This document shows, in pieces, positions 37,401-60,345 of a stretch of DNA of 64,000 nt. How positions within the stretch are numbered: the stretch's first letter is position 1; the number at the start of each line of letters is the position of its first letter. The notes under the pieces are model-generated. The model saw only the letters and a list, made by a program, of their open reading frames with translations, was not told the origin of the DNA and did no database searches. The translations under genes were made by a program, and so were the position numbers. The stretch is from Octopus sinensis. Lineage: Eukaryota. The stretch is from contig NC_042999.1 in assembly GCF_006345805.1 (NCBI RefSeq), positions 87,296,001 through 87,360,000 on the forward strand. The letters are read 5' to 3'.

Positions 37401-39445
37401 TAGTCATTAAGGCTTACATTTTGATTGTTAATCTACCTCAAATTGATTATATATCTTTGTATGATCTCAATGAATTGATTATGTGACTTGATTTTTATTT
37501 TTGTTTGGAACCATTTCACTTCACTAACATTTTCTTAAGGTAGAGTATGGTCACAACACCAGCATCCTTCTCTGTCAATTTCTGAAATATGTGTGTATCT
37601 AAATGAATATGCTGTTGCCTTTTCAAATAGACATAAAGTGTAAGGCTTTTAGGTGTGCAAGATTTGGAAGTTATGATGTGCATGGCTTTTCCACATATAT
37701 TATCAGCATAAAGGAAATGTACTACCTATGATTGAAAATTGAGACTAGGTTTATATCTACTTTTGTTGCCTTCACACTCTGAAGATAAAAAAGCCGTTGC
37801 TTATTGAAAGATACTATTGTATATGAAAAATCAATAAATGAGGGAAAGGTATATTAAGTTTTTTTCAAATTTGTAATCTATAGAGTAAATAAATCACTCT
37901 CTCTCTCTCTAGTCTTATACTACTCATATTTTTGTTATGATGTCTGCAAGTCTGTTTGCCTAATCAATGTTTAACCTGTTACCTATTCAGTCTGTTTGAC
38001 TGTATATTGTTGTAAGTCTATTCCTAATAGCCTTCCTTATTCTAAAATTTCCACTGCAATGACCATTGAGTATATATGTGTGTGTGTGTGTGTGTGTGTA
38101 TGTATATAAAATTTTGTATTGCAGACATAGTTATGTAGTTGGAAAGCTTATTTCCTGACCACGTGAGCTTGGGTTTTGTCCTACTGCACAGCACCTTAGA
38201 CAAATGTCTTTTTGTAGTCCTGGGTCGACCAAGACCCTGTGAATGGATTTGGAAGATAGAAGCTATGTATATATGCATATGTGTACCCTTGTCTTGGTGG
38301 TTGTAAATGAGCATCATAAGTGACCATATTCATTTCCTGCCTTCCATGGTGAAGTATTGCCTTACTTGGAAACAGGTGTGGGTTAGCAAAGTGAAGGGCA
38401 TCCAGCTGTAGAAAATCTGCCTTAAATTCTCTATGACTCATACAAGCTTGTAAAAGTGGATGTGAAATAATGATGATGATGATATTGTTTTGACCCTGCT
38501 TTTAGAATAGGTACACTTTCCCATAAAATGAAAAGCTGGGATGGGGTGACCACGACTAGAACACCTTATATCATAAGTCTGCACTATCAGGACTGATCTT
38601 GTTTGAAACAACAACTACCATTATTTCTGTCATTTCAATTTTTGTATGCTGTTATATGTTTCCATAGCCACCTAGCTCCAGTCATTACTCTTTTGCTTTA
38701 TGTCATCATTGAGGTGTTGCATTTAAACATTTAATCTGTTTCATTCCAAATCTGTCTACTTCAACTTCTCACTCCCAACTCGTAACTTTTGTCTGAATTG
38801 TAGTTGTATGTCTAGCGTATATTAACTGATACTTATAATGCAAACATTCTCACCTTGTACTCCATCTCTTACAAAATCTACAGACACAAAACATATTATC
38901 TGTTTCTATCCAATCATTTCAAGATCTCTGGCCTTTACTGTCAGCTCTTCGCTATATATACAGCATCTCACTTTTGTTGCATGCATTACTCAATGTAACT
39001 TTTTGTACAGAAATTATTTTGCTGCCAAGAAAGGTATCAGTTGTCTAATCTCCACCCACTACTGTAGATGCTGCTGTTGCTGGTTTCAGTATCCAAAACT
39101 AATAAGTGCATGATACAAAAAAATACATCTTATTTGCCCCTTGTTTATCAGAGATATGAAACTTAGTCAAAAGCCTTCTCTGAGTCAACAAAGCCAATGG
39201 GTATATTCTTTGCAAAGTATATCTCTGGCATTTGTTTCACCAATTTTTCCTATCCTTTGTGACAATGCCAGCTCATTTCTTATGGGAACAAGCCCTCTCA
39301 GTCAACCATTTCAATGAAGTGTGCTTGAAGGTATCCATTTGTATGTACCTCTGTTTAACAATATACTGGATAACTAGATATAGCGTATCTATACATAAAT
39401 ACATATATACATGCAGAAAATAAAGATCACACATATTGATGATTT

Positions 39446-39487
<42 letters not shown>

Positions 39488-41289
39488 GTTTAACATATAT
39501 ATTTAATGTTCATTTTCCATTCTGGCATCGGTTGGACAGCTTGACAGGAGCTGGCCATCCGGAGAGCTGTGCTGGCTTCAGTTGTCTGTTTTGGCTTGGC
39601 TTCTATGGCTGGGTGCTATTCCTTATGTCAATCACTTTACAAAGTGTAGTGGGTCGTTTTCTACGTGGCACCGGTGCTTCTTAAATGGTACTGGTATGGG
39701 TGCTTCTTGGGTGTTACCAGCATGCCTGTGGCACCAGTATGATGTGTATATAAGATCATTGATTGCACTTTACTTTGTAGTTTTTGATGAAAGTATATTC
39801 ATTCACAATTTTTTTTATGTTAGAATGCTAGTAAATTTAGCATTGACCACAGTTCTTATTTGAAGTTTTGATGAAACCAGAAAAGTTATTTGAAATATAA
39901 AAAAGATAAAAAGATAAAAAAATGAAAATTTTCTTCAAAACATGAAGTCTGGTAATATAAAACAATGAAGACGAGAGTATTGTGTGAATGAAACATTGTC
40001 AGACAATGAAATTTTTATTGAAATTGAATCAGTAGTAGAGTTAGCAGTAGTAGTAGTTATTGTAGCATTTAGTAGCATGTTAGTAGTATTAGAAATAATA
40101 TGTGCAATAAAATGACATACAAAAGTCATAACTTATTGGCAATAAAATATTGAACAACCCTAGCGATTCATTCTTAAAAATGTGGGTTACCAGCTGACCA
40201 CCACTGCTTCACTCACAGCACACAAAGGCCATTCACAGCCATTGGTGATGGAGGGAAGATTGGTTAAAGTGAATGAGAGGAAAATGGAACAAAATCATCC
40301 TATAACATATTTGAAAAACTTTTATTTCTTTCAGAGTTGTTGTTGATTTTAATTTTCATCTATTTTTGTTGCATTTCTGATCATTAGTTTATTCTAAGTA
40401 TTTTTTTCACACAATCACTTAGAAATCTTCCTGTTAATCTCAGTGTAAAATATCTTCAGCTTTTCTGAGTCTAAACTCACTTTTCTTCTTCAAGATATTT
40501 GAATTATTTTTATCCATAATTCTGAAACTGTAAAACACAACTGGGTCTTAATTTTACTGCTAAGTGCTCTACAAATTAGTGTAGCATGGTTCAAGAATCT
40601 ATTTGATCCTGTTGCTGCATTGGAGCAGAATGGAAGAGTAACTGAAATAATTTTACTAATTTATAATATTTGCTATTTCCGTGATAATTGACAAAGTCCT
40701 ATTATTTTCTTGAATGATATTAAACTTAAGCTACTGAGTTTGTAAAAGTTCTTCCTATTGAATGGTTTGAATGTGTATTTTAATTGCTAGAATAATGTAA
40801 TTTCTGATATTCCAACTAAAAACGTATTAAAAATCTTTTATAACTTGTTTATAAATTTTGTGCTGTTAGCTTTATTCCTAATTTTAAAGAACTGTTATAA
40901 GGTTTACTATCTTTGCAAGTATTTTCTCAAAGATACAGACTTCCAGCTGTGATCTTATGAGCATATAGGCTACTCTGCAAAATTATTGAACCTGTTTTAT
41001 CTAAAGGTAAAATAAAAAATGTACCTGATTTCTAGAAATCCTGAAACATTATCTTTCTAATTGGGCTTTATTGATACAATTTGTATATTTTTTTGTACAA
41101 ATATGTAAGTATCAAGAGTAAAAGGGTTAGAAGAGAGTTAATGACCCGCATAGTTGGACCCTTGAGTTTTTCTCCTTATTCAGATTTAATTTATTAATCC
41201 ACAAAATTTTAGAGCAAAGCGTAATTCTTTTAAAACAATTTATAAAGCTAATATTTCCATTAAGGCTGATTTTCTTTTTTAGCCTAAAA

Positions 41290-41362
<73 letters not shown>

Positions 41363-44300
41363 CCATTATATATAATGAAGTTAGGTTCTCTATGTGGTGT
41401 CATTTATGAAAAATTAGTGCTTTAATCACTTGAGGCTTATTTCCTTTCAAACTTTACTCTTTTCCACCTCTTTATTTTTGTTGATACCAACATTTGGAAT
41501 GAAATATAAAAACAAAAACAAAAAAAAATATATAAGTTCCATTTTATGCTCTCTGCAATGTTTTAGTTCAGGTAGGTGAGTGCATTATTTTACTGCATTG
41601 AAATCATATCTAATTCTCTCTGTAAACAGAAAACTTATCGAACTCTTTCACAGGTGAAAAATCAAAATTTTCATTTTAGAAATATTAAAATCCATTTTGA
41701 AAATAATAAGCTACAGTAAAAATAGTTGGCTTAAAAGAAGATTGAAATCTTAGCAGTGATTTTGAATGTGGTGAAATTATTTGTATTTTTCAAGAGCATT
41801 CCATTAGTGTTTTTAAAATCATTTTTTTTTCTCTTATATTGGCTTGGCCATATAATATTTCCACTTTGAGTATGGTCTTGTATGAAATGTTGTGATCAGC
41901 AGCTATCTGTATCATTTACAGCAGAATCAATAATAAATATAATTTAAATCCAAACAGACCTATGGCAGACCATATTACACTGTCATTCATGCATCCATTC
42001 ATTCATTTTTCTCTTAATTCTTTCTCTCTTCAAAACAGAAATAATCACCTTAAGTCTGTGTGTGTGTGCATGCATGAGCCTGTGTATACATATGTTTGTG
42101 TGTGTTATTCTGTATTAAAAACATTTGATTCATTTTCAGAAAAAAGCAATGGCATTTGAATATTGCACCTATTGCAACAGAAGCATTGCCAAGACACAAA
42201 ACTTTTTTTTTCAAATAATTGCTCACTCTCTAAAACCTTTATTGTCTTGTGACTTCTTCTATCAAGCCTTGCAAATATAGTTTGCTTTTTTTATCAAACA
42301 ACATACTGAGATGCACTTAAAAGACATTGCTATAATATGAAAATGATATCAATGTAGATCAGTATGAAAATGTATGTCTTGACAGTGAATATTATTGTGC
42401 CAGCTGCAATGAAATACAGAACTGTTTTGAAATAATTTTTTTTTATTTCAATGTTCATCAGTTAGAAGTTAACTTTTATTAGGACAGTTCTTGACAAAGA
42501 ATACATTCAAATAGACATTTATGAGAAAAAGTTTATGATAAGTTTAGAGAGACATTTTATAAGGAAAACTGGTAGTAATATAACCTGCATATTGTTTAGC
42601 CTTTAAAACAAAGCAATATTGCAGTGGTAGGTATGTGCATTTAAATTATTACTCCATACAGAGTGGTAGATGTGTTCAACATATTGACAAAATTGAATTC
42701 ACTACAACTAACATGTTTGAAAAGTTAACACCAAATTTCAGCAGATAGAAATTGGGTTCTTGTCAGTATTCAGTGGACATGCCTTCTAGATAGACAACAT
42801 GGTTCTCCTCAGAGGTATTGTTGATTATTACTTATTCTCATCTTTTCAACACATTTTGCAAAGGACTAAATTATTGTCGCTTATTTTATATTTATGCAAA
42901 GTTTAGTTTGTGCGTTTTTTCCTTTGTATTCACAGGAAAAGTAAAGAAAAGCCAGTTAATGTTTACACCCTTAACTTTTAGTGTGCAATTTCATAACAAA
43001 AAAGAGACATTTTACTTAGATTTATGTCCTACGATATTTAACAGTTTTCAATAATAGCGTCATCAACAATTTGATGAAGTATTTTGTTATCATTTCTGCT
43101 TAAGAATCAAATCATTTTCTATAAGAGGGCAAGAGCCCCCACTTCCCTTATTAAAAAAAAAAAAAAAAAAAACTTAGCCATTGATACCTAACAATTGCAA
43201 CAGAAATGAAAGATGCTTCTTATGAATGCTTTAGACGTATGATATTACCTCTTGGAGGAAAGGTTTTTTTTATTGTTAAGTTTTCTTATTGGCATATCTG
43301 AGATTCTTATGTTGTGAGCACACCGACTGATACTGTTAAGAATAAGCCAAGTTTCTCTTTGAATTGAACATTAGTTATGTTAAATTTTCCTTCCTCTCAT
43401 CCATAAGACTATTGCACATGGTGATTTACTGTTTCAATTAAACTACTATTTGTTAAGTTTACTCATTACATCTGCCTCTCTGTCAGACTGAAATTGCGCA
43501 TAATGTTGTGTGAATTATTTTCTTTATTTTAGTTCTTTTAAAAAAACAACAAAAAAACAAAAAAAGAAACATGAAATGGTAACAACGGATCCTTGTTTGA
43601 ATCAATTGTTATTACATAATTTATGGTTCACTATATACAGTTAACTACCACATAATACAAAAGAGAAACACTGAAGGAAAAAAAAAAAGAAATGTATTTT
43701 TTGAATTTGTTTTTTTTTATTTTTGACTCGATTGTCAAATTCTAGATCTCCTGCTTTCACTTGAGGATGTTGAAAAGGCAGACGTAAACTTAGTTGTTGT
43801 TCATTTAACTTACATTCTCTAACATTTAGGTTTCCAGTGTTTGCGTTTATGATTTAAAAATAGCACAACCATACAGTAATGGTGGTGGTAGTAATAGTAG
43901 TAATAATTAGTAGTAGAAGTGCTATATACACTTTTGAAATTTTGTTTTTTAATATTTGATCTTTGATATTTAAATATTGTTTTTGTGAACTTTGTCAGAA
44001 GTTGAAATGACCATCTATCTTTGCTGTTTTACTGGAAAAGAATAATAGAAAGGAAATTTCCTTTGTGAAGATAACTCTCGTGGAAGTTAATGATTTTCTA
44101 AATTTTTAGTTTATGACACAGCCATATTGAGCCCTTCATTTATCTACTGTGCATTGTTGGTATTCCTTATGTGAATGTCTAGTAAATTGTCTTATTGAGA
44201 GAATATTTTATTCTAGTTAGTAAAATGATGTGAGAATATAAAGTCTGGATTGAATTTTGTTTTTCTGCAATCACTAGCAAATTAGAACTTATTTATACTT

Positions 44301-47300
44301 CAGTAAATGGTTTTTTTTAGTGTTTTTGATAAATTTGCTTTTTATACATAAGCTCCTCCTTATTGTTGGTAAGTTTCAATGACTAAGGTTAGCTAAATAT
44401 AACACAACTGCCTGATTATGGGTAATCCTCAAAGTGAAATTGGATTGTGTGGCAGGTCAGTAAGATACAAGTGAGCCAATTCTTTGACATATTATCACAC
44501 TATGCAATTGATTTTGCACTTTAGAATAAAAATAAAATCAAAACAACAATGACAAGAAAAATTACAGTCTGAGCATTGAAATGGTAAAAAGTATAAATGA
44601 ATTGTCTATTAAGTGTTTATTGCTTTCACTGGAAAAGTTCCAAGTTATGTACAAATAATCAAATTAATAAAAAGGCATGTAAAAACATTTAACTACTGAT
44701 GTCAAAATTGTTCAAGATTTCGTGTAAAACATTTTTATTTTGAAATTATAAATATTTTTCATGTTTTAATATATATAGAATTAGTTTTATTTTTGATGTT
44801 GGGATAAAGATAAAAAGTTTAATGCTTTGGGTAGATTTAAAAACATTGGGATTAAAAATTGGGGTGGGGAATAGTTTAAAATACTTTCTCATTTTTTTTT
44901 TTAAATAAAATTTGGATACCATGTGGAAATTTAATTACTGATGTTATCTCATTTAAAAAGGTTCTTCTATTTTTCTCAATGAAATTAATATATTTTAATT
45001 AGATCTTAAATAAGTAAAATTAAATTGTACAATCTAGTAAAAACACATGCTATCTCTGCAGGTGCTTTGGAATTTACATACATTTATGTATAATTGTATA
45101 TTTATACATAGACATATGAATTGAGAGGATGGATGTTCTATCTACAAGTGCATACAGTTATATACATTAATACAATGTCTCTAATAACCTGAAACCAACT
45201 GAACAGATTTAAGAGAAGGTGTTTATTGTCGATATCATATTTTGATTGACTCTGACTCCTCTTTTATCAGGCATTTGTATTTTAGGTTTATAAAGCAAGC
45301 ATATTTGACTAGTGACATCAGCAGACAACATCATTGAAACTAAATATTCTGTGTAAATTTTGATTTGTAGTTCTTCAGCTACTGAGCTATGAAAATTATT
45401 GCTTCTCGAATGAGTACTGTTATTGCTTGTCGAATGGGAACTATAATAAAAAGATATCCCTGAAGAGCAGAATTTATATTTTTGAATATTTTTTTTTCTT
45501 TTAAGTTAAGAGCGAACTTTTCACTTTGGAACAAACCGACATTCTTTGTTCATTTACAGCACAGCCATGTTAACTTAACATAGGTGCTTTGAGAAAGTTG
45601 AACACATTTGTTTTTTTCAGTCAACATATATCGATGTTCATAAATTGTTTAATCGATGTTAATTACAATTTCTCATCATAAGTTTAAATTTTAACATTTT
45701 CTTCACCTTATTTTATCCTTTTTTTTGTAATATATTTTCCTCTGTAAAATATTTACAGAGTTCACCAGTGGAAGAAATTTTTAAACACTCTGTTATTGCT
45801 CAGTGAATATTTAGTGGCAGTCTCATATTTTATATCAGCATGAAAATATATTGCTATAACATTTGTATATTTTTGCTGTACACATATGTATCCAGAGAGG
45901 TCATAATCTGTAAAATAAGACATCAAAGCAAAGATATATAAGGCCAGCTAAGGCTTATTAAAGATTTTACAAAGACAATTTTCAGCAGAGAATATTCAAT
46001 AAATTGCAGATTTTTAAAAGACAATACATTTTTTTTTTTAGATACTTTTTATATAGAATTAATTTTTAAAAATGTACAGTGTTAATTTTCATAAAACGTT
46101 TATATTGCTTGGAATTTAAACTTTATTTTAATATTATTTATATCTTTGAATTTTTTTTTTTAATTGGTTTCTCTTCCTTTCACCTTAGATAATTTCATAT
46201 TCAGTATATTTGGGAAACTTAATTACTGCCCACTTTTTGTTTTAGAACAAGTCTTTTGCTTTTAACTATCATTTAGTATATTTCAGTATTTACCTGTTCC
46301 AAATCTTATACTATTCTTCTATATGTTTTTCTCATTTTCTCTGGAACTATTTTTATTTTCTCATAATTTTTATATATATTATTTCTTTGCAAGTTACAAT
46401 TGAATTTCTTCAATTTCATTCATCAGTTTCAGTTTCATGCCCTACAATATTTATCAAGACAATTCATGCTTTCAAATTTCCTAAGATTTCCATTCCTCAA
46501 CATTTCAACTTGTCATTTTAAACTGAGGATTTTATTTCATCTGTTTTACTGATTATCTCTTTGCAGTGATTTATCATATTTAAACGATAATTTAATGTCA
46601 ATTGATATATATTTTAAACTATTGTTTTTCTTCAGTTGATTAACAAGAGATCAATGAGTCAGTGATCATATTGATTTTGAACTCTGATCATTTAGTATTT
46701 AGTTTCAATGTTCAATCATTAGTGCTTATCATAGTTTCAATTATGGAAGACTCTTCTTTATTAAATCTCTTTTGAAGATTGCTACGTACAGTTAGTTTTT
46801 GCTTAATTTGCTTATTAATTAGAAGAATATTTTGAGATATATTATTGTGTCCAGAAGAGAAACCATTGTGGTCTTAAATATTTATTGCTGTAATTTCAAC
46901 TTATCTCACTGTTTAATATCTTATCGAATAATAGAATTGGACAGGAAAAAAGAAAACATCACCCTTTTTATGTAAATGAGCCATTATAAAATTCTTTTGT
47001 GACTTAATGAGTCAAATACAACATTTATCATTTCTCTCATGTCTAGGAGGTAGACAAAAAAAAAAGAAAAAAAAAAGAGAGACCCCCTCCCTCCCCTTAC
47101 AAAAACAATGAGGTAAGAAAAAAGGTGTTTTTTTTTCTAAGAATTTTGATTTCATCTATTTTTGACCACATTAGAGGGTTTACATATATAACAAGAGCTT
47201 TCATTGGAATCTCCCATTCATTATTATGAACTCAGTAGTCGAAATAGTTGAGTTTGATTGATTCTGTTTCTTTTTTTTTTGACATGTTAATGAAATCTTT

Positions 47301-48186
47301 TTTTTTTTTAATAGAAGTCAATTTGTAGCTAACAGTTTATTAAGGGTTAGCTTCTTCCTCCTTAGATTATTACCCCCACCTGCACCCCATTCAGATTATT
47401 GAAATGAAGCTTTTTTTTGTTTTATTATATATAATTGAGCAAGCTATGAAAAAAAAATGGGTGAAAAAGATAGTAGTGTATGGTCACCATGTTCAACGAT
47501 AAACAGAATGAGTTTAATGTCAACCATAACAAGAATAACGTTGAATTAGTGTAGAAATTCTAAGGTCATGCATGGAAGTCAGCAAAAAAGAGTATGAGGA
47601 ATGAAAATTGCAGTTACCTATGTCAAAAGAAGTTGTTTGTGTAGAAATTATTATTATTATTATTAATATTATTATTATTATTATTATTATTATTGTATGA
47701 CAAATAGTGTTGGCTGGTGCAAGGTATTTTAATGTGTTCTGGAAATTTTCAGAAAATCATCAAGTGGTGGTGGTGGGGGGTAATGAATTATTTCTTTGTT
47801 TTTAAAAATGTTACTTTCCCAATTGAGATGGTGGGATAATTGCTACTTTAGACAAGTAGTTCTTCAACTGTTCTTGCATATAATAGGTACTTCAGCCGTT
47901 AGTGTATGTAACAATGGAATGTCTCTCATCCAAGTTATGTTACCTAACAGCAAAACACTTAGGCACCTCAACTGTTAGTGTTACCTAACACATAACAGCT
48001 AGGTTATATCAGCTATCAGTGTATTTACTAATGAAGCACCGACTACATCAGTTGGTAGTAGCTTATAACAACTACATAAAGTCTTTAATTAAAAATAAAA
48101 TAAGTAACATCTGATGGTTTTAGTTACACACACACACGCACACAAAATGTATGTTCCCTTAAAAGATGACATATCTTTAAAAGGAG

Positions 48187-48220
<34 letters not shown>

Positions 48221-51200
48221 GGGAGAGAGTGACTTGATGTAGACTGGTCATAATGTGATTCTGAAATGTGAAAGAATAAATTCCTCTTTTGATCTACACT
48301 ACTGGTCAAATAAATGAGCAACAGGTGTTTACCCACCTTTCTCTGGTTGTAAACACCTGCTGATTGATATAATAAACTTGTGGACATGTCAGACTTTGAT
48401 TGGGGGGGAAGTGATCAGTTAAGTGCCATTTGAAATTTGATTAACAATATCTCATCTGTCTCCCCAGGAACAACAGCAGTGGCTTTATGAGCCAGTTGAT
48501 ACTGCTGTCTTGATGGAGACAAAAATGGAAAAATTGAATAGGAAAATGGGGAGGGGGGAAATAAAAAAAAAAAAACCATCAGTTATAGTTCATATTCTAT
48601 GTATGACCATTTTCTTCAGTTTTAGTATTCAGTCATTACTATTGCTAGGTTGAGTTTATTGCTTTTTGATGTATTCTCTTGCTCAAGGAGAATTCCATTT
48701 TTTTTCCTTCTTGTGCTTCCTCACTCTTCACATTGCATCCTCAATATTCTGACAGAATCATCATGTTAATTATTTACGTATTCTATTATCGTTGTGTTTT
48801 TTTCTTCAACTTTCACAATTATTGTATAGTTTTTTGCTTTTTTTTCCTGTACTGTTTTCTTTTCTTACCACTGTTTTTAATAATTACCAGAATTTTTTTT
48901 CAGATTCCATGCAGCAAGGTTAATTGGTATTGCCAATATAAAGTAAGAGGGAGTTAGAGGGTGAGTGTGGGGGGGGGGAAATGTTTTTTTTTTTTATAGA
49001 GTACCTGTTAATATTTTTTTAAACTTTTTTTTTTCTTTGCTTTGTATTAATGGACAGTTGAACCCAGGTGGGTTTAATATTACTATGCTGCATTACCACA
49101 AGTTGTCTTCAGTCTGCCTAAAAAAAAAAAAAAGGATACAAAAGTTGATTAAAACTATGTTGTAATACACATTGTTTTGATTGTACATATTGTGAAATTG
49201 GAACATAATAGGAAGCATCTAATTATAAACTCAGACGTTTTCATTAATGTTTAATAGAATAGAGACCGTTAGAATGTTTAAAATAGATTGAATCTCAGAA
49301 ATGGTGCTTTGCAGCTATCTGATTTGCTGAGGAATGTGTATTTGCTGACCTGTGTTCATCAGAATAGTTTTTTTTTAAATTTAGACATATTTATAACCAA
49401 AAATGCAACTCATTCTCTTTCAGGTTTTCTTAATCTTGAAAATGATATTTGAAAATTTATGAAAGCTAATAACAACTTTGAAAAAATAAAAAAAATATGG
49501 TAACCATTATCTTCTTGACTTCTCATCTTACCTTGTCTTTATCTCTCTTTTTAGAAAAGGCATGGCAGGAACAGCATGAGGCAACTGAGGATCACTGCAT
49601 GCATGGTAGGCTGTGTCGGAACCGTGGAGCTTGTACAGGTTTTGTTCATTTCTTCTTCAGCTAAAACATATAACAACATTTTATGGTTTAATTTGCTTAG
49701 AATATTTATTTCTGAATAAAACACGTGTGTGATGTTCAATGAGTGATTAGGAATAAGAAGGAATAGAGATAAAGTTTACGATCTGAAATAAGATAGCATT
49801 GTCTGAAGGAATTTTTTTTGTTATTTTTAAAGATTTTATCTAAAGAAATCTTGATACCTGTTTTAATGAAGTAAAGTCCATTAATTTAATTGTATAAGTG
49901 TATGTGTGCATGAAAAGAAAGTATGAGAGAAGAAACACTGCTTAATAATCTCTGAAAAGTTTCAGCCATTTTGACTATTTCAGCAATGATTAGCCTGGAC
50001 GTCTGGTTGTTGAGATTGTATTAGATGTAGTAGTTTTAATTAACAGCAAAAGTAGTAATGATAACAATTATGCTTAATAACAAATGACAAACAAATTCTT
50101 TCCTTTTCCTTAGTTGGGAGTCGGTGTTATTTCATGCATCTTCTGTGTGGGAGTATTATAACACTAATGTCAGTTTTGGAAGCAGTTATTGCTCGTCACT
50201 CATATCAAATGCATCTCAGGTAGGTTGTGAATTTGATTTGCTAAACTATAATCTATTATCTCTTCTTACTCATGTTGTTTATAGTTTTCTTTTTCCCCAT
50301 CTTTCTAATTATTATTATTAATTTTTTTTTGTTGCATTTAAATTTGTGAAAAAAAGTTATGTGAGATAATGAAAGTCATTTAAGACTGTAAACTTAGTGC
50401 AATTGAATTGTTGGTGATGTCTGGTATTAGAAGTTTAATGAGAATTTCATAGAAGAAATAAAAATAGCATTTAATACTTAAGCACAAACCTGAAATTGTG
50501 GTGGGTGTAGGGAGCAAAGTATCAGAAATCAGTCTTCTTCACTGAACACAAAATTATAGAAAAAAGGAATTTCTGTTCTAATTTTTCTCATCTTTTATCT
50601 TACCTAATCCCTATTCTCTATCTCTACCTTCTGCCCTAAGTATGCCATCTCACTGCAGAGCATATTTTAATTTTGGCAGACACTCTGAACAGTTCTTAGT
50701 CTTTTACTCATGACTATTTCTGCAGTTAAGTATGCCAGTGCATCTGGTGCACTTAAATTTGTTTCTGTAATCAGTGTCAGGAAATGCAAAATTCTTTGAA
50801 ATATTTTTTGATGCTGTAAGATATTCAGTTTAAATTACATTTACCTGTCACAAATTACATTTACCTTTATTGTATGTAGATTACGGTAATCCAATTACGT
50901 TACCTGATACAAATTGCATTTATTTTTATAGTTTGTTGATTGTTACTTGTTGCACTAAATGTAATTATTGTTACCATGCTTAAGGTTTAGTTCTGTTTTT
51001 GTTCTTTCTTTTTAAAGTAAAGCTGAGTCTTCCATTCGAGTTGTACGGATTCAACTTAACAATGGTGAGCGTGTTGTTGGTATCCGTTACCCAGAACGTC
51101 TCATTGGTGAGGTTGAGAAAGTTCTCAGAGAACATCAGCTTGTCAATCAGTTGCAGATGATGAATAACAATGTTAGTATCCTTGCTATAATTTACCATAT

Positions 51201-51936
51201 TCTCTATGGAATTTTATTTTTCTGATATGTTACTAGATATTTCTCTGTCATACTGTCTCTTTCTTTTCCTGTTTTTGTACTATATTTTTTATTGATTATA
51301 TATTTTTGCTTTTTGTTTCAGTCATCAACGCAGACCAATGACACTGTTATACCAAATTTTAATTCTTCATCGAACAAGTTCATCATTGAAGCTGCCTCTC
51401 CAGTGATTCCAAAATATGTTAACAAGGCATTTACTCCACAATTTAACATGCACTCGTTTTTCAAGTCTAATCCACGTAGTCATGTGATGCCGTCTTCAAT
51501 GAGCAGAAGTTCATGTAAAGTAAGACCGATGGAACAAAATCTGGTCAATGATTCCAACAATCAGCTCATGCCATACAATAGTGCACCAGCACAACATTCC
51601 TTATCCATTGCTAGCAGTGCTACAAGTAATAATTTCAATAAAGGAGTGTCTTGTAGTGCTATTTGCAGCAGCAGTGAGAGCAGTATTACCAGTGATCCTT
51701 ACAAAATGAACATGTCCCGAAAACGGCGTTTTAACAACTACAGCTTTGATAATTGCATTGATATGAATAGCAATTGCAAGCAACAAACTCTTGTGTCTCT
51801 TTTTGCTAAAAATACTGTCAATAGGCTGGAGAGTCCACTAGTAACTGGCCAGCAGTGTCCAGTATGCAGCATGAATTTTGAGCTGGGCACCACTAATGAT
51901 CAGATCAATGCTCATGTTGATAACTGTCTTTTGTAA
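1390..51936 (+). CDS. SBNO-like: Strawberry-notch family SF2 helicase-like protein (SBNO/FORGETTER1-like paralogue); 5'-partial, 25 exons in window
   Basis: Exons join with consistent phases and GT-AG ends: 1390-1505, 3657-3709, 4244-4307, 5256-5346, 7300-7379, 8767-8834, 9790-9900, 10334-10427, 11473-11589, 14270-14358, 15551-15722, 17434-17494, 18064-18193, 18995-19080, 19978-20093, 20240-20320, 22309-22443, 23242-23303, 25414-25515, 29206-29379, 30388-30470, 49555-49638, 50114-50219, 51018-51171, 51322-51936. Family motifs: [102 protein letters not shown]. Confidence 0.95.
1880..2737 (+). mobile_element. Young retroposon (SINE or RTE-type 3' end) with internal 11 x ~60-bp tandem array and (GAT)n tail
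   Basis: Tandem units 1901-2573, then the family 3' segment gagtggttggcgttaggaagggcatccagcc...catgctagcatggaaaacggacgctaaacgatgatgatg; CpGs intact. Confidence 0.85.
3657..3709 (+). CDS. SBNO-like exon
   Basis: tag|...|gtaaat; [18 protein letters not shown]. Confidence 0.9.
4244..4307 (+). CDS. SBNO-like exon, motif III (SAT)
   Basis: cag|...|gtaaga; [21 protein letters not shown]. Confidence 0.93.
4716..5026. mobile_element. hAT-type MITE
   Basis: Terminal inverted repeats caagggttttc / gagaacccctg; 8-bp target-site duplication ggataaat / gggtaaat. Confidence 0.75.
5256..5346 (+). CDS. SBNO-like exon
   Basis: tag|...|gtaaat; [30 protein letters not shown]. Confidence 0.93.
5455..5762 (+). 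mobile_element. (GAT)n-tailed SINE-like retroposon
   Basis: Same 3' segment as the 2575-2737 copy, ending gacgttaaatgatgatgatg. Confidence 0.85.
6540..6998 (+). mobile_element. (GAT)n-tailed SINE-like retroposon with internal duplicated units
   Basis: Repeated gtaaaagcac units plus the family 3' end. Confidence 0.85.
7300..7379 (+). CDS. SBNO-like exon
   Basis: cag|...|gtaaat; [27 protein letters not shown]. Confidence 0.93.
8767..8834 (+). CDS. SBNO-like exon
   Basis: cag|...|gtatat; [23 protein letters not shown]. Confidence 0.88.
8988..9194 (-). mobile_element. TTAA (piggyBac-type) MITE, family A, degenerate
   Basis: Reverse-complement similarity to the 35422-35650 and 17612-17823 copies. 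Confidence 0.7.
9790..9900 (+). CDS. SBNO-like exon
   Basis: cag|...|gtaagt; [37 protein letters not shown]. Confidence 0.93.
10334..10427 (+). CDS. SBNO-like exon
   Basis: cag|...|gtaagt; [31 protein letters not shown]. Confidence 0.93.
10525..10825 (+). mobile_element. (GAT)n-tailed SINE-like retroposon
   Basis: Family 3' segment and tail. Shorter fragments near 8290-8468, 12356-12484, 26178-26310, 37190-37236, and on the minus strand near 31518-31670 and 39505-39740. Confidence 0.85.
10920..11073. repeat. Long inverted repeat / fold-back MITE-like element
   Basis: ~50-bp arms tttgggaaaaactgttatatgctagaaaatatgcatgttaatttccattt and its near-perfect reverse complement. Confidence 0.8.
11473..11589 (+). 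CDS. SBNO-like exon
   Basis: tag|...|gtaagt; [39 protein letters not shown]. Confidence 0.9.
13908..14120 (+). mobile_element. CORE-type SINE, degenerate
   Basis: gactttgcctttcatccttttggggctgataaaataaatatcagtcaaatactgggg core-like segment. Confidence 0.6.
14270..14358 (+). CDS. SBNO-like exon
   Basis: cag|...|gtataa; [30 protein letters not shown]. Confidence 0.88.
15091..15323. mobile_element. Palindromic MITE with long terminal inverted repeats
   Basis: ~95-bp near-perfect arms starting tattgtgtctggggagagtcattttctttttgtg and ending cacaaaaagaaaatgactttccccagacacaata. Confidence 0.85.
15551..15722 (+). CDS. SBNO-like exon, start of C-terminal helicase domain
   Basis: cag|...|gtaagt; [27 protein letters not shown]...LESLNVNE. 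Confidence 0.94.
16428..16630 (-). mobile_element. 5'-truncated CR1/L2-like LINE 3' end with (ATT)n tail
   Basis: Minus strand reads [27 protein letters not shown], then a short UTR and a microsatellite tail. Confidence 0.8.
17434..17494 (+). CDS. SBNO-like exon
   Basis: cag|...|gtgaga; [20 protein letters not shown]. Confidence 0.93.
17612..17823 (+). mobile_element. TTAA MITE, family A
   Basis: ttaagcctttagcattt ... gaatgctgaaaggttaa; similar to 35422-35650. Confidence 0.8.
18064..18193 (+). CDS. SBNO-like exon, motifs V-VI
   Basis: cag|...|gtaagt; [43 protein letters not shown]. Confidence 0.95.
18995..19080 (+). CDS. SBNO-like exon
   Basis: cag|...|gtaaat; [28 protein letters not shown]. 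Confidence 0.93.
19184..19431. repeat. Two-copy tandem duplication, ~125-bp unit
   Basis: taatttatatttaata...aatatttaatgaaaatagg...taaaattcaa occurs twice with substitutions. Confidence 0.8.
19978..20093 (+). CDS. SBNO-like exon
   Basis: tag|...|gtgagt; [39 protein letters not shown]. Confidence 0.94.
20240..20320 (+). CDS. SBNO-like exon
   Basis: cag|...|gtttga; [27 protein letters not shown]; phase 0/0. Confidence 0.85.
21571..21965 (-). mobile_element. Non-autonomous Helitron
   Basis: Minus strand starts A|TC(tttatatataaaag), ends with hairpin cccgagcaacgccggg then CTAA|T; no TSD. Confidence 0.8.
21973..22175. mobile_element. TTAA MITE, family B
   Basis: ttaatccttttgatacca ... tgataacaaaagggttaa; second copy at 34075-34301. 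Confidence 0.8.
22309..22443 (+). CDS. SBNO-like exon
   Basis: tag|...|gtaatt; [12 protein letters not shown]...[20 protein letters not shown]. Confidence 0.92.
23242..23303 (+). CDS. SBNO-like exon
   Basis: cag|...|gtaagt; [21 protein letters not shown]. Confidence 0.92.
25414..25515 (+). CDS. SBNO-like exon
   Basis: tag|...|gtaagt; [34 protein letters not shown]. Confidence 0.9.
25800..26760 (-). mobile_element. Degenerate RTE-type LINE fragment (endonuclease region), interrupted by a SINE 3' end
   Basis: Minus strand reads [17 protein letters not shown], resembling the APE YAPQ...K..FY motif; boundaries approximate. Confidence 0.55.
29206..29379 (+). CDS. SBNO-like exon
   Basis: tag|...|gtttgt; [16 protein letters not shown]...GFYLSK...NIFKVVR. 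Confidence 0.92.
30388..30470 (+). CDS. SBNO-like exon, before the 19-kb intron
   Basis: tag|...|gtaaat; [27 protein letters not shown] (RPNTG motif spans the junction). Confidence 0.92.
32450..33340 (-). mobile_element. Degenerate RTE-type LINE reverse-transcriptase fragments
   Basis: Minus strand reads [27 protein letters not shown], resembling RT AIF..RQLQEK...AFVDLEKAF; boundaries approximate. Confidence 0.6.
34075..34301. mobile_element. TTAA MITE, family B
   Basis: ttaacccttttactacca ... tggcaacagaaggg; similar to 21973-22175. Confidence 0.75.
35422..35650. mobile_element. TTAA MITE, family A
   Basis: Terminal inverted repeats ttaaccctttagtgtt / aacactaaagggttaa. Confidence 0.88.
35874..36304 (+). 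mobile_element. 5'-truncated RTE-clade LINE with (TGA)n tail
   Basis: [11 protein letters not shown]...RRVQFAGHC...DREVWR (one in-frame stop); 11-bp TSD ttcccttaaac / ttccctcaaac. Confidence 0.88.
38118..38483 (+). mobile_element. tRNA-derived SINE, near full length, degenerate
   Basis: tRNA-like head similar to 61562-61680; gggcatccagctgtagaaa segment; (GAT)n tail. Confidence 0.75.
49555..49638 (+). CDS. SBNO-like exon, Cys/His cluster
   Basis: tag|...|gttttg; [28 protein letters not shown]; phase matches the exon ending at 30470. Confidence 0.88.
50114..50219 (+). CDS. SBNO-like exon
   Basis: tag|...|gtaggt; [35 protein letters not shown]. Confidence 0.9.
51018..51171 (+). CDS. SBNO-like exon
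   Basis: aag|...|gttagt; [41 protein letters not shown]... Confidence 0.88.
51322..51936 (+). CDS. SBNO-like terminal exon: Ser/Asn-rich tail with PIP boxes, NLS and UBZ-type zinc finger
   Basis: cag| acceptor after a pyrimidine tract; open for 204 codons to TAA; contains [20 protein letters not shown] and CPVC-x15-H-x3-C. Confidence 0.88.
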   Translation, partial: SSTQTNDTVIPNFNSSSNKFIIEAASPVIPKYVNKAFTPQFNMHSFFKSNPRSHVMPSSMSRSSCKVRPMEQNLVNDSNNQLMPYNSAPAQHSLSIASSATSNNFNKGVSCSAICSSSESSITSDPYKMNMSRKRRFNNYSFDNCIDMNSNCKQQTLVSLFAKNTVNRLESPLVTGQQCPVCSMNFELGTTNDQINAHVDNCLL

Positions 51937-52048
51937 CAGGCAACTAACTCATTTTTTTTAAGTTATTCAAAATTGAAAGAAGAAAACATGGAAAAAGGAA
52001 CGGCACATTTTTTTTTGTTGAATTTTAGTATTGAAGGAGACATACGTA

Positions 52049-52054
52049 AATAAA
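52049..52054 (+). promoter_or_regulatory. Candidate polyadenylation signal
   Basis: AATAAA about 115 nt after the stop, followed by a GT/T-rich element near 52097-52115. Confidence 0.4.
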
Positions 52055-55000
52055 CCTAACACTTATATAACATTAAATACTAATTTAAATTAAAAGTTTG
52101 TGTTGTTGTTTTTTATTTAGATATTGTGTTCTGAGAGAGAGAGAGAGAGAGAGAGCAATTGCTTGCAGGGACAAATTAACCTGCTTTTTTTATAAACAAA
52201 AATGAATAAGGGAACACTTCTCCTGAATCTATTTCTTTTGACGTAGTGGTGTATTGTATTAGGTTACATCTCACAGTGTTTAGTGTTGACTCCAGTTTCA
52301 TATGTACAAATTTGGATATCTTTACTAGAAACTTGCAGGTCAGGTCTCTTCCCCACCACCAAATTAGAGAAAAAAAAATTTGGTTGAGTGCTATTTGCTG
52401 CAATCCTATAATTTGTTTGTCAAAACAATTCCGTCAGTGTACAGCTGCAGGACAGACATTTGTCAGAATGGTGTGTATGTGTGTGAGATGTTCATGTATA
52501 TATGAGAATGTGTGTATCTATATATAATACTGGTAAACATTGGGAAGTTGATGTCATGGAATTACTAATTCTGTAGCCCTCTTAATACTGCAGTATTAGT
52601 TCCAATGTGCAGATATTAAACTTTTGCTGAGCTGATTAGCTCTGTCTACTGAGCATATGGTTGAAATGACTAATATCTTGTCACCATTGCTGCACTGGCT
52701 TATTCTTACTAAATTTTCTAGCTATAAATGGGTACCATTTGAATTATATCCTTTTACTGTAGGGAGTAGGACTTTAGTTAACATGTATGCTCTAAGTTTG
52801 CAGTGCTGAGTTCAAGTCTTGCTTTGAGTTAAGAGAAGGTAGTTTGAAGTATTATATCAGATTACATCAATAGCTATAAACAGACTATAAATCACTTCAG
52901 TGAAGATTGCTATTTAATATCATATTAAATTTACAAGCCTCCCCAACTAAAATTCCACAATGATAACATATTGTAAGTTGGTTATATATTATTTTAATAT
53001 TACAAGTTATTACTAGAGTACTGTAGATTTACATAAGTCAGTTGTTTTGTATACACATATTGTAGAGGAATGGAAATATTATTTAGCCACAGGTCAACCC
53101 TGATCAAGCAAACTTATGATTGAAGGTATCCCACCCATGATCACCCTTTCTGTTTTTTACAGTTATGTCTAGTAGTATACTAATCCAAGGGAACCATATA
53201 TAAAACTGAAGTGTAATTTGAATTGATAGAAATATCAGGCAGGTTAAGTGTTTACTTGTTATTAATAAATTCTATTCACTGCTAATGCTATACACCAATC
53301 ATACAATGGTTAGTCCACATTACTCCGTAAGGAGCATAGTGCTGGTTTCCCAGTTTATCTGGCATATATATTCCTTTCTGGACAGGAATTGAAACCACAA
53401 TCTTAGTCATGAGCCCAACACTGTAATGACAAAGTCACTGCCTCCACACAATTATACTATACTCTACACCAGAAAAGACTAACCATATTTCTAAAAATAT
53501 TTTTTCTTAGTTTTGTAAATCATAGATCCATATCAAATTGGTTCAAATTCCACTGGTTCCTATCTTGATTGATAAACTAAATACCAGTTATGTACACTGG
53601 CCTTGGTACAACAATTATTTTTTGAGACATTCCATGAAGAAGACTAATCTGAATCTATTTGGTTTCTAACATCTAAAAGGAGCTGATGGTTTTTGGTGTC
53701 AATATTTGTTTCCTATGATCTCTCATTGTTTTACAAATGTATCCTATTAATCCTAGTTTATTCTCTTCCTGTAAGTGTTTGTTCACACCTCATTTTATTG
53801 ATAACATAAAACTTTTGATACAGAATAAAATATCTTTGATGTGAATGGAGAGCCTCTTCCACATCAGCAATACTAGAAAGGAAGAAAGTATTTTGTATTG
53901 CTGTCTATTATTGAGCTATTTTGTTTAGTCTTGGTCTTTCTCACTACCTTTTCTGTCTCACATACACATACTTGTTTCAAATGGAATTAGTAGACATAGG
54001 TGAGAGGTTCATACGCAAAGTATTGATTCTTTCAGATATTGTTTTACAGCATTTTTTATATGAATAATACAATCAAATGAACCACCTAAAATCTGAAATT
54101 CCATTTAATATCGAACCAGTTTCTCTTCTGTAGACTATGCAGAACTTTATAGAATCTTTAATACAATGGTTTTTTTCCCCCCAATTTGACTAAACCATTA
54201 CATTTTTCTAATTTAATCTTACAAATCTGTTGATTGCAGATGAACAAAGATACATAGTTTGTAAGTTTCATGCTGTCAATGTTATTTGAAGTGAGATTTG
54301 CTTAAAGATCAGTCAAATGAGCATTCATTATTTTGCCTCACATAAAATATATTGAATTTTACATAACGAATTAGGATGATTCTTCTGTTTCTATAAATTG
54401 ACTTATTGCAGACATTAATCTTATACTTTGTTAACCTCTTCACATCCAAGTTTGGTTATTTCGATTTAGCTTTTTGTCTAACAATCTCATGTGCTGTAGC
54501 ATGTTCAGATCCAAACTGACAGCAAATAAATCAACTAAGCTTAGATGTTAGCTAGAACTGCACTCTTTGTTCCCCAGAGTTTAATGATCAATAATTTGTT
54601 GGGTAGTGAGTCGAGTTTCTGTCTTTCTGATTATCATTTCAACTGACATGGTTAGAAATAACTTCCTCGTTTCACTGAGGTTTACTCAATTTCTCGCGTC
54701 AGTGAAGTGCTTGTATGAATATTTGAAAATACGAGTATCTATTAAGATAGTTTTTGTTTATTAACTTTCAGTGAATGAATACATTGTGTGAGCATCTAAA
54801 AATATTACTTTTGAAGACCAAACTAGTCACATATTTCCATATATCACTAAATATGAAGACCTTTGTCTTTTTTAATTTTTTTTTACAAAATTCATGGTTT
54901 TAGACGATATCATTTGGCTACATTTTATGTAGGATATTTTACTGAGCATAGTCAAACCAAATACTTTCACACTGTTTAAGTTAATTTACAAACAGAAAAT

Positions 55001-55960: not shown

Positions 55961-56767
55961 CCCCTTAATGGATTATCCCGAGTTTACTCGTGCATCGCAA
56001 ATGTATATTTTTAGAACCAGACAAGTATACTCGGTCAAAATTAACTTTTAATTTTAGCACTCAAACAAGTTTATTTGTTTTGTGTCGTTTCATTTTTGAG
56101 CAATCACGAATTTACTCGTCGAAAAAATTTGTGTGGGAAAAAATATAAAAAAGAATTTTTCATTTGATGGATTTGGCTATCTGGAATGCTTATGTTTTGT
56201 ATAAAGCATCTGGAAACCCCAGCTTCTGCTATGAAATCGCTGAAAATTAGAATGCAAATAATCACCAAGAATTATTGAAAAATATAGGCCCTTATTGCCT
56301 CCCACGAAACCAGGAAGACCATCATCGATCCCACATCCAACAAGATTTGCCCCAGCTGGTCACTTTCCCATGGAGATACCTCCAAGTGATTAGAAAAAGA
56401 ACCCTACAAAACAGTGTGCGAAATGCGCAGAGAAGAGAGACGCTAAAGCAAAGAAGATTCGAAGAGAAAGCAGATACATGTGTGATGTCTGCAAGAAAAC
56501 TTCGTGTGTAACTCCTTGTTTTCCAGTGATTTAAAAGCAATACGTCTTATAAAAAATCGAAGTTAGTTAAGATATATGTATTTTTTCAATGTCCGAGTTA
56601 ACTCGTTTAAATCCAAATGAGTAAAAGTATAATTTAATTTCTATAATAAAAAATAAAGGAAACCCCTTTTTTTGTAATTAACACTGTATATAATTAAAAA
56701 AAGGAAATTAAAAAATATGCTCTGAAATGAAACGTCAAAATGTCAAAATAATTGACCCTTTAAGGGG
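55961..56767 (+). mobile_element. Internally deleted piggyBac element with transposase C-terminal relic
   Basis: Ends ccccttaa ... ttaagggg|ttaa. Frameshifted relics FHLMDLAIWNAYVLYK and KQCAKC...RRESRYMCDVCKKTSCVTPCF (piggyBac Cys-rich domain). Confidence 0.85.
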
Positions 56768-59383: not shown

Positions 59384-60102
59384 TCACCAAGATGGTGGCA
59401 GTGTGCAGGAAAATGGCTGGATGGATTCTGTATAGCTAGCAAGGGTGGCTATCTGAGTAGCTGAGGGAATGTCTGAGAGGGCCACTATGAATAGTAGTGA
59501 CCCTAGGACAGTGCCCTGTGGAACACCACTTGCTATTTGTGTTTCCTTGGAGGTGGCTCCATTGGTCACCACTGCCTGACGACTAACTTTTAGAAAGTCG
59601 TGCAGCCGCTCTTCAAGTTTTCCGCCTATGCCGAGATCACGCAGTTTGTGACATATCATACCATAATCGACTTTATCAAAGGTTTTTGCAAAGTCGAGAT
59701 ATATCACATCCATACTTGATCATTTAGCTGCTGTTTTAACATCTAGTCGTAGTGTTACAAAAGCTGTGTTGGACAGCTTCTACCCATGCTGGGTGTCAGT
59801 CAGCATGTCATTTTCTTCAAGGAAGACGATTAGTTTTTTGCGGACTATTCGTTCCATGACTTTGCTGATGTGTGAAGTTAGAGAGATAGACCAATAATTT
59901 TTAGTATCTACTCTGCTTCCTCCCTTATGGATAGGGCATATTATCCGTTTCTTCAGTTTATCTGAAAGCTCTGAAAAAGAAGTTGCAGTGGTTTTGCAAG
60001 TGTTCGCTTGTACGATTGAAAAGGACCGCTGGAAATCCACCAGGGCCAGCAGCTGAGTTTGTGTCAATCTCATCTGTGTCCAGTGTTACATCTCTTCAAA
60101 GT

Positions 60103-60107
<5 letters not shown>
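59384..60107 (-). mobile_element. CR1/Jockey-like LINE reverse-transcriptase fragment
   Basis: Minus strand reads PIHKGGSR...ISLTSHISKVMERIV, DVIYLDFAKTFDKVD and SGVPQGTVLG. Confidence 0.9.
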
Positions 60108-60177
<70 letters not shown>

Positions 60178-60249
60178 ACACATATATACACATATATGTA
60201 TTTACACACGCATACACACACACACATATATACATACACACATATATAC

Positions 60250-60340
<91 letters not shown>
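60108..60340. repeat. (TA)n/(CA)n compound microsatellite
   Basis: Read directly; similar tracts at 59125-59190, 60665-60745, 60885-61096, 61318-61390 and 61509-61560. Confidence 0.95.

Positions 60341-60345
<5 letters not shown>

Follow-up and report, generated by a model that had tools for sequence, protein, structure and literature searches.

What fills the second half of an unusually long intron in the strawberry-notch-like (SBNO) gene of Octopus sinensis? The window analysed here is a stretch of 64,000 nt (NC_042999.1, positions 87,296,001 to 87,360,000), and positions are counted from its first letter unless a locus prefix is given. A first-pass annotation had read 39900-49500 as a hairpin-dense domain and candidate structured RNA of the sense strand. 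Our answer differs, and we hold it with high confidence: 39,98x-49,117 is very probably an exon of about 9.1 kb that forms the 3′UTR of the mRNA for a predicted GPI-anchored (H) acetylcholinesterase (AChE), lying antisense in the SBNO intron.

30471-49554, + strand: host intron holding the probable AChE terminal exon (junction contigs, protein alignment, intron lengths).

This host intron is 19,084 nt long with GT..AG borders on the + strand, and a contig with its junction is present in all four runs examined; the next-longest host intron in the window has about 3,690 nt, so that the earlier estimate of a fivefold excess is borne out (about 5.2 times). The probable AChE terminal exon inside it would account for its length. 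The first-pass annotation had also recognised no transposon copies after about 39.75 kb and no credible ORF in the second half, and both observations stand: the last dispersed repeat of the intron ends at 39675, and inside 39900-49500 there is no credible ORF of at least 80 aa. A genome search (very common words skipped) gave 35 first-look candidates for 39900-49500 against 21,710 for 30471-39900, and besides itself the former found 40 matches, none longer than about 86 nt and the majority at simple repeats. In a local BLAST against the 184 kb neighbourhood, coverage was 12% for the first half and 0% for 39980-49117, at a sensitivity that is low, as 49638-55000 was likewise 0% covered. The scarcity of transposons would follow from the stretch being exonic, with insertions likely selected against.

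Folding was scanned in 120-nt windows on both strands with 12 dinucleotide shuffles each, and the region was compared with the repeat-rich first half of the intron; a check of this kind had been suggested together with the first reading, and the two halves fold alike. Windows with z < -2 make up 16/226 in the region vs 18/233 in the first half on the + strand, and 13/226 vs 16/233 on the - strand (Mann-Whitney p 0.42 and 0.80, respectively), while local structures on the + strand at -10/-15/-20 kcal/mol number 61/37/12, against 64.5/39.3/12.7 in 12 block shuffles. Hairpin density is thus not above chance. The 14 stems named earlier, which were picked by eye, can indeed be drawn, but just six of them reach z < -2 on the + strand and five on the - strand; the argument that their G-U pairs fit a sense RNA fails, since the + strand is favoured in shuffled windows too (-16.2 kcal/mol, against -14.3 on the - strand). 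On the - strand there is a small excess of structures at or below -25 kcal/mol (4 vs 0.9+-0.9 in shuffles), three of the four lying in 47.9-48.5 kb and one being a CA/GT microsatellite pair, and four stretches within 47880-48530, chosen after the scan, have - strand z-scores of -2.96, -5.09, -3.70, and -1.69. Save for this local cluster, 39,98x-49,117 shows no more structure than the half rich in repeats. The window gave no Rfam match at gathering level, with only five sub-threshold matches far below it, and no match to a curated small-RNA family for a miRNA or snoRNA host. Rfam may lack cephalopod-specific miRNAs.

47880-48530, - strand: local hairpin cluster, 0.6-1.2 kb into the putative UTR, with the CA/GT microsatellite pair at 48125-48213 (fold z-scores).

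Transcription was followed in contigs from four runs of four studies, out of 23 runs listed, which were picked for containing the stretch; the contigs carry no information on strand, ends or level. In the run search no holder of the stretch is recorded as RNA, X21-X23 contain next to none of its words, and the shares in two runs from other organisms are 0.70 and 0.59. The record gives RNA as a guess only; the same four runs hold spliced SBNO junctions, and they are therefore RNA. Contigs of all four tile 39,98x-49,117 in pieces, those crossing 43.2-47.6 kb being 3.2-4.0 kb long; no single contig spans the exon of about 9 kb, and none runs unbroken from it to the catalytic exons. Ordinary intronic read coverage was not what we saw: depth is at least 11 in 55 of the 56 bin-run cells of 39638-48975, whereas the 16 cells from four bins of the first half that are poor in repeats have 0-4.4.

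The strand is given by splicing. Among the 15 of 49 joints and 40 of 46 difference rows listed, a joint that “skips 414, CT..AC” appears in X1 and X5, and a version of it that differs by one letter is listed for X9 and again for X1 (three of the four runs together); the joint is not among the joints listed for X10. CT..AC is GT..AG on the - strand, and the joint connects 49,117 to the - strand exon 49,660-49,532, across an acceptor at 49118-49119 that is preceded on that strand by a long pyrimidine run. The RNA taken earlier for a sense transcript is therefore spliced on the - strand and joined to the last coding exon of AChE.

49532-49660, - strand: AChE H exon, with the last 36 residues, the stop at 49551-49553 and 19 nt of UTR (exact splice to P0123).
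49118-49531, - strand: AChE 3′UTR intron of 414 nt, GT..AG, starting 19 nt past the stop (joint in three of four runs).
39980-49117, - strand: likely terminal exon (3′UTR) of the H-type AChE mRNA, its low end approximate at 39975-39985 (contig tiling, acceptor, repeat-free).
40014-40019, - strand: candidate poly(A) signal AATAAA with a U-rich tract after it (near contig ends).

The other AChE exons lie 59-94 kb away. A three-exon splice (L016:7905-9439, L013:4773-4954, and 49660-49532), with GT/AG at each site, yields exactly P0123, the 608-aa O. vulgaris isoform CAI9719658.1; a splice to the T (tetramer) exon at L009:8486-8628, 23 kb upstream of the H exon and also with canonical sites, yields exactly P0001 (619 aa). 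The catalytic body matches COesterase (E 9.5e-149), its best solved-structure matches are acetylcholinesterases, its catalytic Ser, Glu, and His align with those of Anopheles AChE, and the database names for the protein are acetylcholinesterase; the T exon matches AChE_tetra at E 4.9e-5, just under the cut-off. The H exon is an alternative last coding exon in frame after the common exon, the common-to-H junction being drawn from P0123, P0134, and P0135. By rule of thumb the C-termini of these three proteins share a Cys, an omega-like site made of small residues, a spacer, and a hydrophobic tail, and mean hydropathy over the last 15 residues is 2.64 and 2.21 in H forms vs -1.82 in the T form. 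The H tail is thus a predicted GPI signal, and the H isoform is predicted to be anchored to the membrane. Sources of the H form are the O. vulgaris annotation, P0134, and P0135; for O. sinensis and O. bimaculoides the search gave T forms or partial proteins. P0134 and P0135, both of 610 aa, have a homologous H tail and core identities of 394/544 and 392/544. The squid (Loligo opalescens) enzyme was reportedly described by Talesa et al. in 1999 as a 610-aa phosphatidylinositol-anchored dimer with Ser313, in a cDNA study said to give no gene structure, T form or overlap; P0134 and P0135 match that description in their 610 aa and in Ser at 313. An attached GPI anchor and a PI-PLC-releasable amphiphilic dimer are reported for the squid enzyme.

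At the far end of the exon, contigs stop at 39983, 39982, 39975, and 40029, three of these within 9 nt and 31-39 nt past the AATAAA. The hexamer occurs 26 times on the - strand of the stretch vs 24.5 expected; the one at 40014 therefore counts only together with the contig ends, and the other 25 mean that shorter UTRs may exist. Among the difference rows listed for two organism-A runs there are 8 T>C and 0 A>G on the + strand. The three clustered contig ends, the depth slope and the T>C places are weak hints in favor of the UTR reading; the T>C differences (candidate editing only) are also a weak lead toward the ADAR substrate proposed earlier, and editing of the named stems is unsupported (4/7 T>C places lie in them vs 3/11 other differences, Fisher p 0.33). 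Depth declines away from the end near 40 kb. A counter-point to the UTR reading is that the - strand is A-rich, not U-rich. In 12 strand-motif tests the sole excess was that of a Pumilio-like element on the - strand (5 vs 1.3), insufficient after correction.

Of the alternatives, the one that survives best, though improbable, is that the AChE-H mRNA takes in no more than the beginning of the exon, ending at an internal AATAAA, and that the rest, chiefly the deep 40-44 kb, is a separate - strand ncRNA or a cleaved, stable 3′UTR fragment. Coverage is indeed piecewise and steps up toward 40 kb (in X5, 75 at 39982-41281 and about 22 beyond), and the 26 hexamers permit internal ends; however, coverage of oligo-dT libraries climbs toward the poly(A) end in any case, the contigs across 43.2-47.6 kb argue for continuity, and inside the stretch we found no separate start or promoter-like CpG patch and, among the 15 joints listed, no canonical joint. 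It is very unlikely that the exon is common to both isoforms, with the T exon spliced on to the H exon and sharing its UTR: no plain AATAAA was visible by eye in the unique sequence, some 500 nt, that follows the T stop, but no strong donor was seen there either, and two junctions would come far downstream of that stop, a usual trigger of nonsense-mediated decay. Equally unlikely is a highly structured RNA made from the intron on the sense strand, be it a lncRNA, a scaffold or a small-RNA host, since the repeat-free, transcribed stretch and its few real hairpins at 47.9-48.5 kb are set against folding equal to shuffles and to the repeat-rich half, the Rfam result, and a sole canonical joint at the stretch edge that is on the - strand and leads to AChE coding sequence, so that we found neither folding beyond shuffles nor an RNA on the host strand independent of a coding mRNA. 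What remains of the “constrained non-coding element” is that the stretch is transcribed, transposon-free, non-coding and unlike an ordinary intron; its roles as lncRNA, scaffold or small-RNA host fall with the splice to AChE.

Three further candidates were set aside. The sex-linked lncRNAs Zmast and Zfest are Z-linked, according to 10.1101/2024.12.09.627507; nothing ties them to the locus, and they were dropped once AChE was found. The CpG-rich patch at 55.5-55.8 kb might be the start of a lncRNA, but its CpG step is explained equally well if the methylated SBNO body ends there; a minor start is possible. The LRR-like antisense ORF 50983-51213 is superfluous to the spliced AChE protein.

The AChE-H reading has a further consequence at the exon upstream of the UTR intron, where the two genes share coding sequence.

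49555-49637, + strand: SBNO-like host coding exon, residues 1182-1209 of P0138 (tblastn 100%; flanking junction contigs in four of four runs).
49638-50112, + strand: next host intron, whose first 23 nt code AChE on the - strand (contigs at depth 7-27 in X1, X5, and X10).

The AChE H exon encloses the whole SBNO exon, and the two are antiparallel in exact codon register, so that both strands are protein-coding over 83 nt (28 codons), both in already annotated proteins. Since codon lies on codon and the middle bases are shared, the E/Q/H/D/K-rich SBNO helix reads L/M/V/I/F on the other strand, as a hydrophobic GPI-type tail; TTA at the SBNO acceptor, read on the opposite strand, supplies the AChE stop. 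Of the 28 overlap residues, 21 are identical in P0134 and 23 in P0135, vs 3/7 outside the overlap. All seven differences (five of five in the subset) are single first-base changes that are potentially silent in SBNO, against a null of 43/187 single-base replacements (23%) or 23/55 transitions (42%), p 3e-5 to 2e-3; the test concerns compatibility with the SBNO frame in one distant lineage, for which the relative's own SBNO sequence was not found. Such changes point to joint constraint over evolutionary time, and the overlap is therefore likely old, likely older than the octopus-squid split. Ten non-cephalopod SBNO orthologues retain just 10-15 of the 28 residues, and no squid or cuttlefish SBNO was among the 11 matches. 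The SBNO exon is the older frame, and so the H tail would likely have arisen by antisense overprinting; for an old, overprinted origin of the overlap as a whole our confidence is good, if lower than for the UTR.

AChE is transcribed toward SBNO, the two genes being convergent. Past the common exon at L013:4773-4954, splicing would either use the near T exon (L009:8486-8628), which codes for the tetramerisation peptide, or skip it; when it is skipped, the pre-mRNA would continue 23 kb through the last four SBNO exons to the H exon at 49660-49532, and then, over the 414-nt intron, to the long last exon with a probable end near the AATAAA at 40014. A bolder proposal, which we consider doubtful, is that coleoids invented the anchor from a reversed strawberry-notch exon, that the double code pre-dates the octopus/squid split, and that the overlap is used as a switch. 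The H mRNA would be able to pair with the SBNO exon and its two splice sites, as well as with 9 kb of SBNO intron; production of GPI-anchored AChE might then mask SBNO splicing, giving the short isoform X2 that lacks the C-terminal zinc finger, and might offer a long two-gene duplex to ADAR. Read-through into intron 49638-50112 leads to this annotated 1,217-aa SBNO isoform X2, whose tails are identical in three Octopus species. Retained-intron contigs and the X2 isoform are circumstantial as to cross-regulation.

In octopus AChE the T exon is near and the H exon 23 kb further, inside another gene, whereas in mammalian AChE the H exon is the nearer one. The H exon of octopus, unlike that of Torpedo and mammals, is then followed by a UTR intron and an exon of about 9 kb. 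The likenesses (PMC3045457) are that Torpedo and mammalian AChE also have H/T C-terminal splice variants, in which one catalytic body ends either in a T peptide or in an H peptide that is hydrophobic and carries a Cys and an omega-like site. The same paper states that H peptides of cholinesterases show very little homology among themselves and that GPI signals were “invented” several times; the octopus H peptide is likewise unrelated in sequence to the others, but it is as conserved as the catalytic core. The antisense overlap of THRA (TRalpha2) and NR1D1 (Rev-erbalpha) (PMC4569393; see also PMC3047299) is similar in its convergent genes, an alternative C-terminal exon overlapping a partner exon, coding overlap, and presumed exaptation of existing sequence. 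It differs in that the overlap there is between final exons and yields a non-binding variant known from mammals alone, whereas in octopus an internal exon and both its splice sites are overlapped, the product is a recognisable targeting signal, and the probable UTR fills the partner's intron. Octopus mRNA 3′UTRs (PMC9699675) have a reported median of 350-380 nt and resemble the stretch as repeat-poor, AU-rich terminal exons; at about 9.1 kb, the AChE-H UTR would be some 25 times that median, and nested antisense. Literature searches aimed at the overlap listed no paper on an AChE/SBNO overlap or the octopus AChE UTR, and the isoform supplement of PMC9699675 may contain the transcript.

A supposed structured lncRNA thus becomes a defined part of an mRNA, and for long transposon-free intron halves the other strand should be read first. 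Unstranded RNA-seq, probes, and CRISPR guides at the H exon hit both AChE and SBNO. In the AChE/SBNO register a charged helix read antisense yields a hydrophobic tail almost free, which would be a concrete origin for a GPI signal. Octopus AChE has been linked to synapses and arm regeneration (PMC5430041), and our results point to an H/T switch in this enzyme, with a probable UTR in the H message about 25 times the octopus median.

The + strand host gene of the window (G000:C3:87296001-87360000, in a genome of 2.7 Gb) is strawberry-notch-like (SBNO): its protein P0138 (1,500 aa; database name strawberry notch homolog 1) gives 24 tblastn pieces spanning 1386-51933, and three SBNO Pfam families score above cut-off. 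Intron 30471-49554 (19,084 nt, GT..AG), spliced in all four sequencing runs examined, is about 5.2 times as long as the next longest host intron. The SBNO-like C-terminus at 51850-51933 (+) is a UBZ-like zinc finger (UBZ_FAAP20, E 0.028, below cut-off), which is absent from the short isoform X2. At 1900-2568, a CpG-rich tandem array (61/123-nt unit) lies within a SINE-like repeat.

The first-pass annotation had described the second half of this intron (39,900-49,500) as free of repeats and dense in hairpins, and only the former stands. Our genome search, which ignores very common words, gave 35 first-look candidates for dispersed repeats there versus 21,710 in the first half (30471-39900), and local BLAST, a weak test, gave repeat cover of 0% versus 12%. 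Hairpin density is not raised: z falls below -2 in 16/226 (+) and 13/226 (-) windows, against 18/233 and 16/233 in the repeat-rich half (120-nt windows, 12 shuffles per window). On the + strand, at thresholds of -10, -15, and -20 kcal/mol, local structures are as numerous as in 12 block shuffles; on the - strand observed/shuffled counts are 59/57.8 (-10), 27/30.2 (-15), 11/7.2 (-20), and 4/0.9 (-25 kcal/mol), with most of the small excess falling within 47.9-48.5 kb. Four stretches there, chosen after the scan, include three with z of -3 to -5. Among the 14 stems originally named, z is below -2 in only six on + and five on -, and G-U pairs, once offered as evidence for a sense RNA, fail as such because the shuffled + strand also folds better. 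Rfam gave no family-level match. The region's strongest hairpin, on both strands (about -40 kcal/mol), is an inverted pair of a CA run and a GT run at 48125-48213.

Between 0.84 and 0.93 of the stretch's words were found in 14 small assemblies, whose RNA nature was guessed (none is recorded as RNA). We mapped contigs of four runs, one per study, out of 23 listed, to 30300-50299; all four contain spliced SBNO junctions and therefore represent spliced RNA. Depth is at least 11 in 55 of 56 bin-run cells across 39638-48975 and 0-4.4 in 16 cells of four repeat-poor first-half bins; since the runs were picked by this stretch, the coverage shows presence, not level. A joint skipping 49118-49531, with CT..AC ends (GT..AG on the minus strand), occurs in runs X1 and X5, and the same joint with one differing letter in X1 and X9, among 15 of 49 joints listed. 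Contig ends near the low edge (39983, 39982, 39975, and 40029) are flanked by a minus-strand AATAAA at 40014-40019 and a U-rich tract, and depth declines going away from the ~40-kb end; in oligo-dT libraries depth is highest near the poly(A) end and falls with distance. These signals and the slope hint weakly at a transcript end near 40 kb, because contigs carry no information on ends or level, and the minus strand holds 25 further AATAAA. Insertions of 13 nt (40896) and 17 nt (46426), common to both runs of organism B, mark a second species or population; its long contigs around them have only about five letter differences in 3.7-3.9 kb.

On the minus strand, the exon that precedes this 414-nt intron has a clean acceptor and donor, and a scan of 100 kb beyond the window found a long frame (COesterase E 9.5e-149) whose best solved-structure matches are acetylcholinesterases (AChE). 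The pieces of the gene are:

L016:7904-9703 (-), 600-codon AChE frame
L013:4773-4954, next AChE exon
L009:8486-8628, T exon (tetramerisation-peptide isoform)
49660-49532 (-), H exon (predicted GPI-anchored isoform), enclosing SBNO exon 49555-49637 together with its two splice sites

Joined at GT/AG sites, the first two exons and the H exon give P0123 exactly (608 aa, O. vulgaris CAI9719658.1), and swapping in the T exon gives P0001 exactly (619-aa RefSeq protein), whose tail resembles the tetramerisation domain (match just under cut-off). The gene thus offers a nearby T exon and a distant H exon, and operates in the manner of the H/T choice of vertebrate AChE. The H tail combines a Cys with small residues, a spacer, and a final 15 residues averaging 2.64 in hydropathy, a layout matching the GPI-signal pattern described in PMC3045457. 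From its sequence, the H isoform is predicted to be GPI-anchored. Its stop codon lies 19 nt upstream of the last exon junction, close enough that it should escape nonsense-mediated decay. Given the splice to the H exon, with the stop before the last junction, the 9.1-kb stretch (39980-49117) is most likely the H-isoform 3′UTR, whose continuity we infer; of the earlier interpretation, the presence of RNA is retained, and this minus-strand UTR replaces the structured intronic RNA as the likeliest identity. On the minus strand of 39980-49117, Pumilio-like elements number 5 versus 1.3 expected (0 on +; 12 motif tests made), and ATTTA is slightly depleted (27 versus 40). Putative transposon remains lie in the AChE intron that separates the T exon from the H exon, at 56394-56534 (+), 59384-60640, and 63397-63714 with L009:2-865 (-); they are presumably a Cys-rich frame resembling a piggyBac transposase end and reverse-transcriptase-like LINE fragments. 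At about 55000, CpG observed/expected passes from 0.04-0.45 to about 0.8-1.2 beyond the SBNO 3′ end, and is mostly high across the long AChE introns, likely a step between methylated and unmethylated gene bodies.

In the two organism-A runs, T>C differences on + occur at eight places (41461, 41462, 42331, 43336, 44445, 47900, 48615, and 49533, the last at the splice joint), with no A>G on + within the exon among 40 of 46 difference rows listed. Those at 42331 and 43336 recur in one organism-B run (43336 at ~30% in both). They fit A-to-I editing of a minus-strand RNA and, being read from RNA contigs alone, are a lead as candidate sites; the named stems do not hold a significantly larger share of them than of other differences (p 0.33).

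Within 49520-49554, the AChE H donor sits in the SBNO polypyrimidine tract. On + its GT reads AC and lies 24 nt upstream of the SBNO acceptor, where a branch point could be. SBNO isoform X2 (1,217-1,221 aa), annotated in three Octopus species, reads into intron 49638-50112, which has contig coverage, and ends eight residues into it (49638-49664, +); its TAA stop falls on the AChE acceptor, just as the AChE stop falls on that of SBNO. X2 may reflect genuine intron retention, promoted by the antisense exon, or may be an artefact that stems from unstranded data.

The H and SBNO frames lie in exact antiparallel register (base 1 against base 3, middle against middle), and the TTA of the SBNO acceptor, as its reverse complement, supplies the AChE stop (49551-49553). 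Among the first 17 SBNO residues of the overlap, 11 have A at the middle codon position, which places hydrophobic AChE codons opposite; hydropathies of the two readings correlate at -0.49. Two 610-aa AChE relatives, P0134 and P0135, with 72% core identity to octopus AChE and an H-type tail of the same kind, are more distant from octopus than Argonauta is (core 449/544). Their length and Ser313 are those reported for squid AChE, and on this ground we infer that they are squid or cuttlefish AChEs. Over the 28 overlap codons, P0134 and P0135 have 21 and 23 residues the same as octopus, versus 3/7 outside the overlap. All seven P0134 overlap differences (five common to P0135) are single first-base changes able to be silent in SBNO, where chance gives 43/187 for single-base changes and 23/55 for transitions (p 3e-5 to 2e-3), as a compatibility test on one lineage, the relative's own SBNO sequence not having been found. 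Only 10-15 of the 28 residues are kept in ten non-cephalopod SBNO orthologues, which nevertheless share the C/H motif and have 6-12 residues with A as middle base, so the SBNO frame is older and the hydrophobic antisense reading pre-existed. H-like tails in other molluscs (Solemya P0019, Ruditapes P0071) look by eye unrelated to the cephalopod tail, and such tails likely arose separately several times. Among molluscan and nemertean AChEs, P0010 and P0012 likewise have H-like tails unlike the cephalopod one, and most molluscan matches have T tails. The H tail likely arose by antisense overprinting of the SBNO exon, before the octopod-decapodiform split about 270-300 million years ago.

Public annotation already contains the AChE and SBNO proteins as well as the H isoform, and literature searches aimed at the overlap, at the level of titles and listings, found no paper on it. 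Nested antisense 3′UTRs as such are known. The overlap is built like that of THRA/NR1D1 (PMC4569393), and the UTR is about 25 times longer than the octopus median of 350-380 nt (PMC9699675). The GPI-signal exon is dual-coded and apparently ancient, which opens the origin of such a signal to testing.
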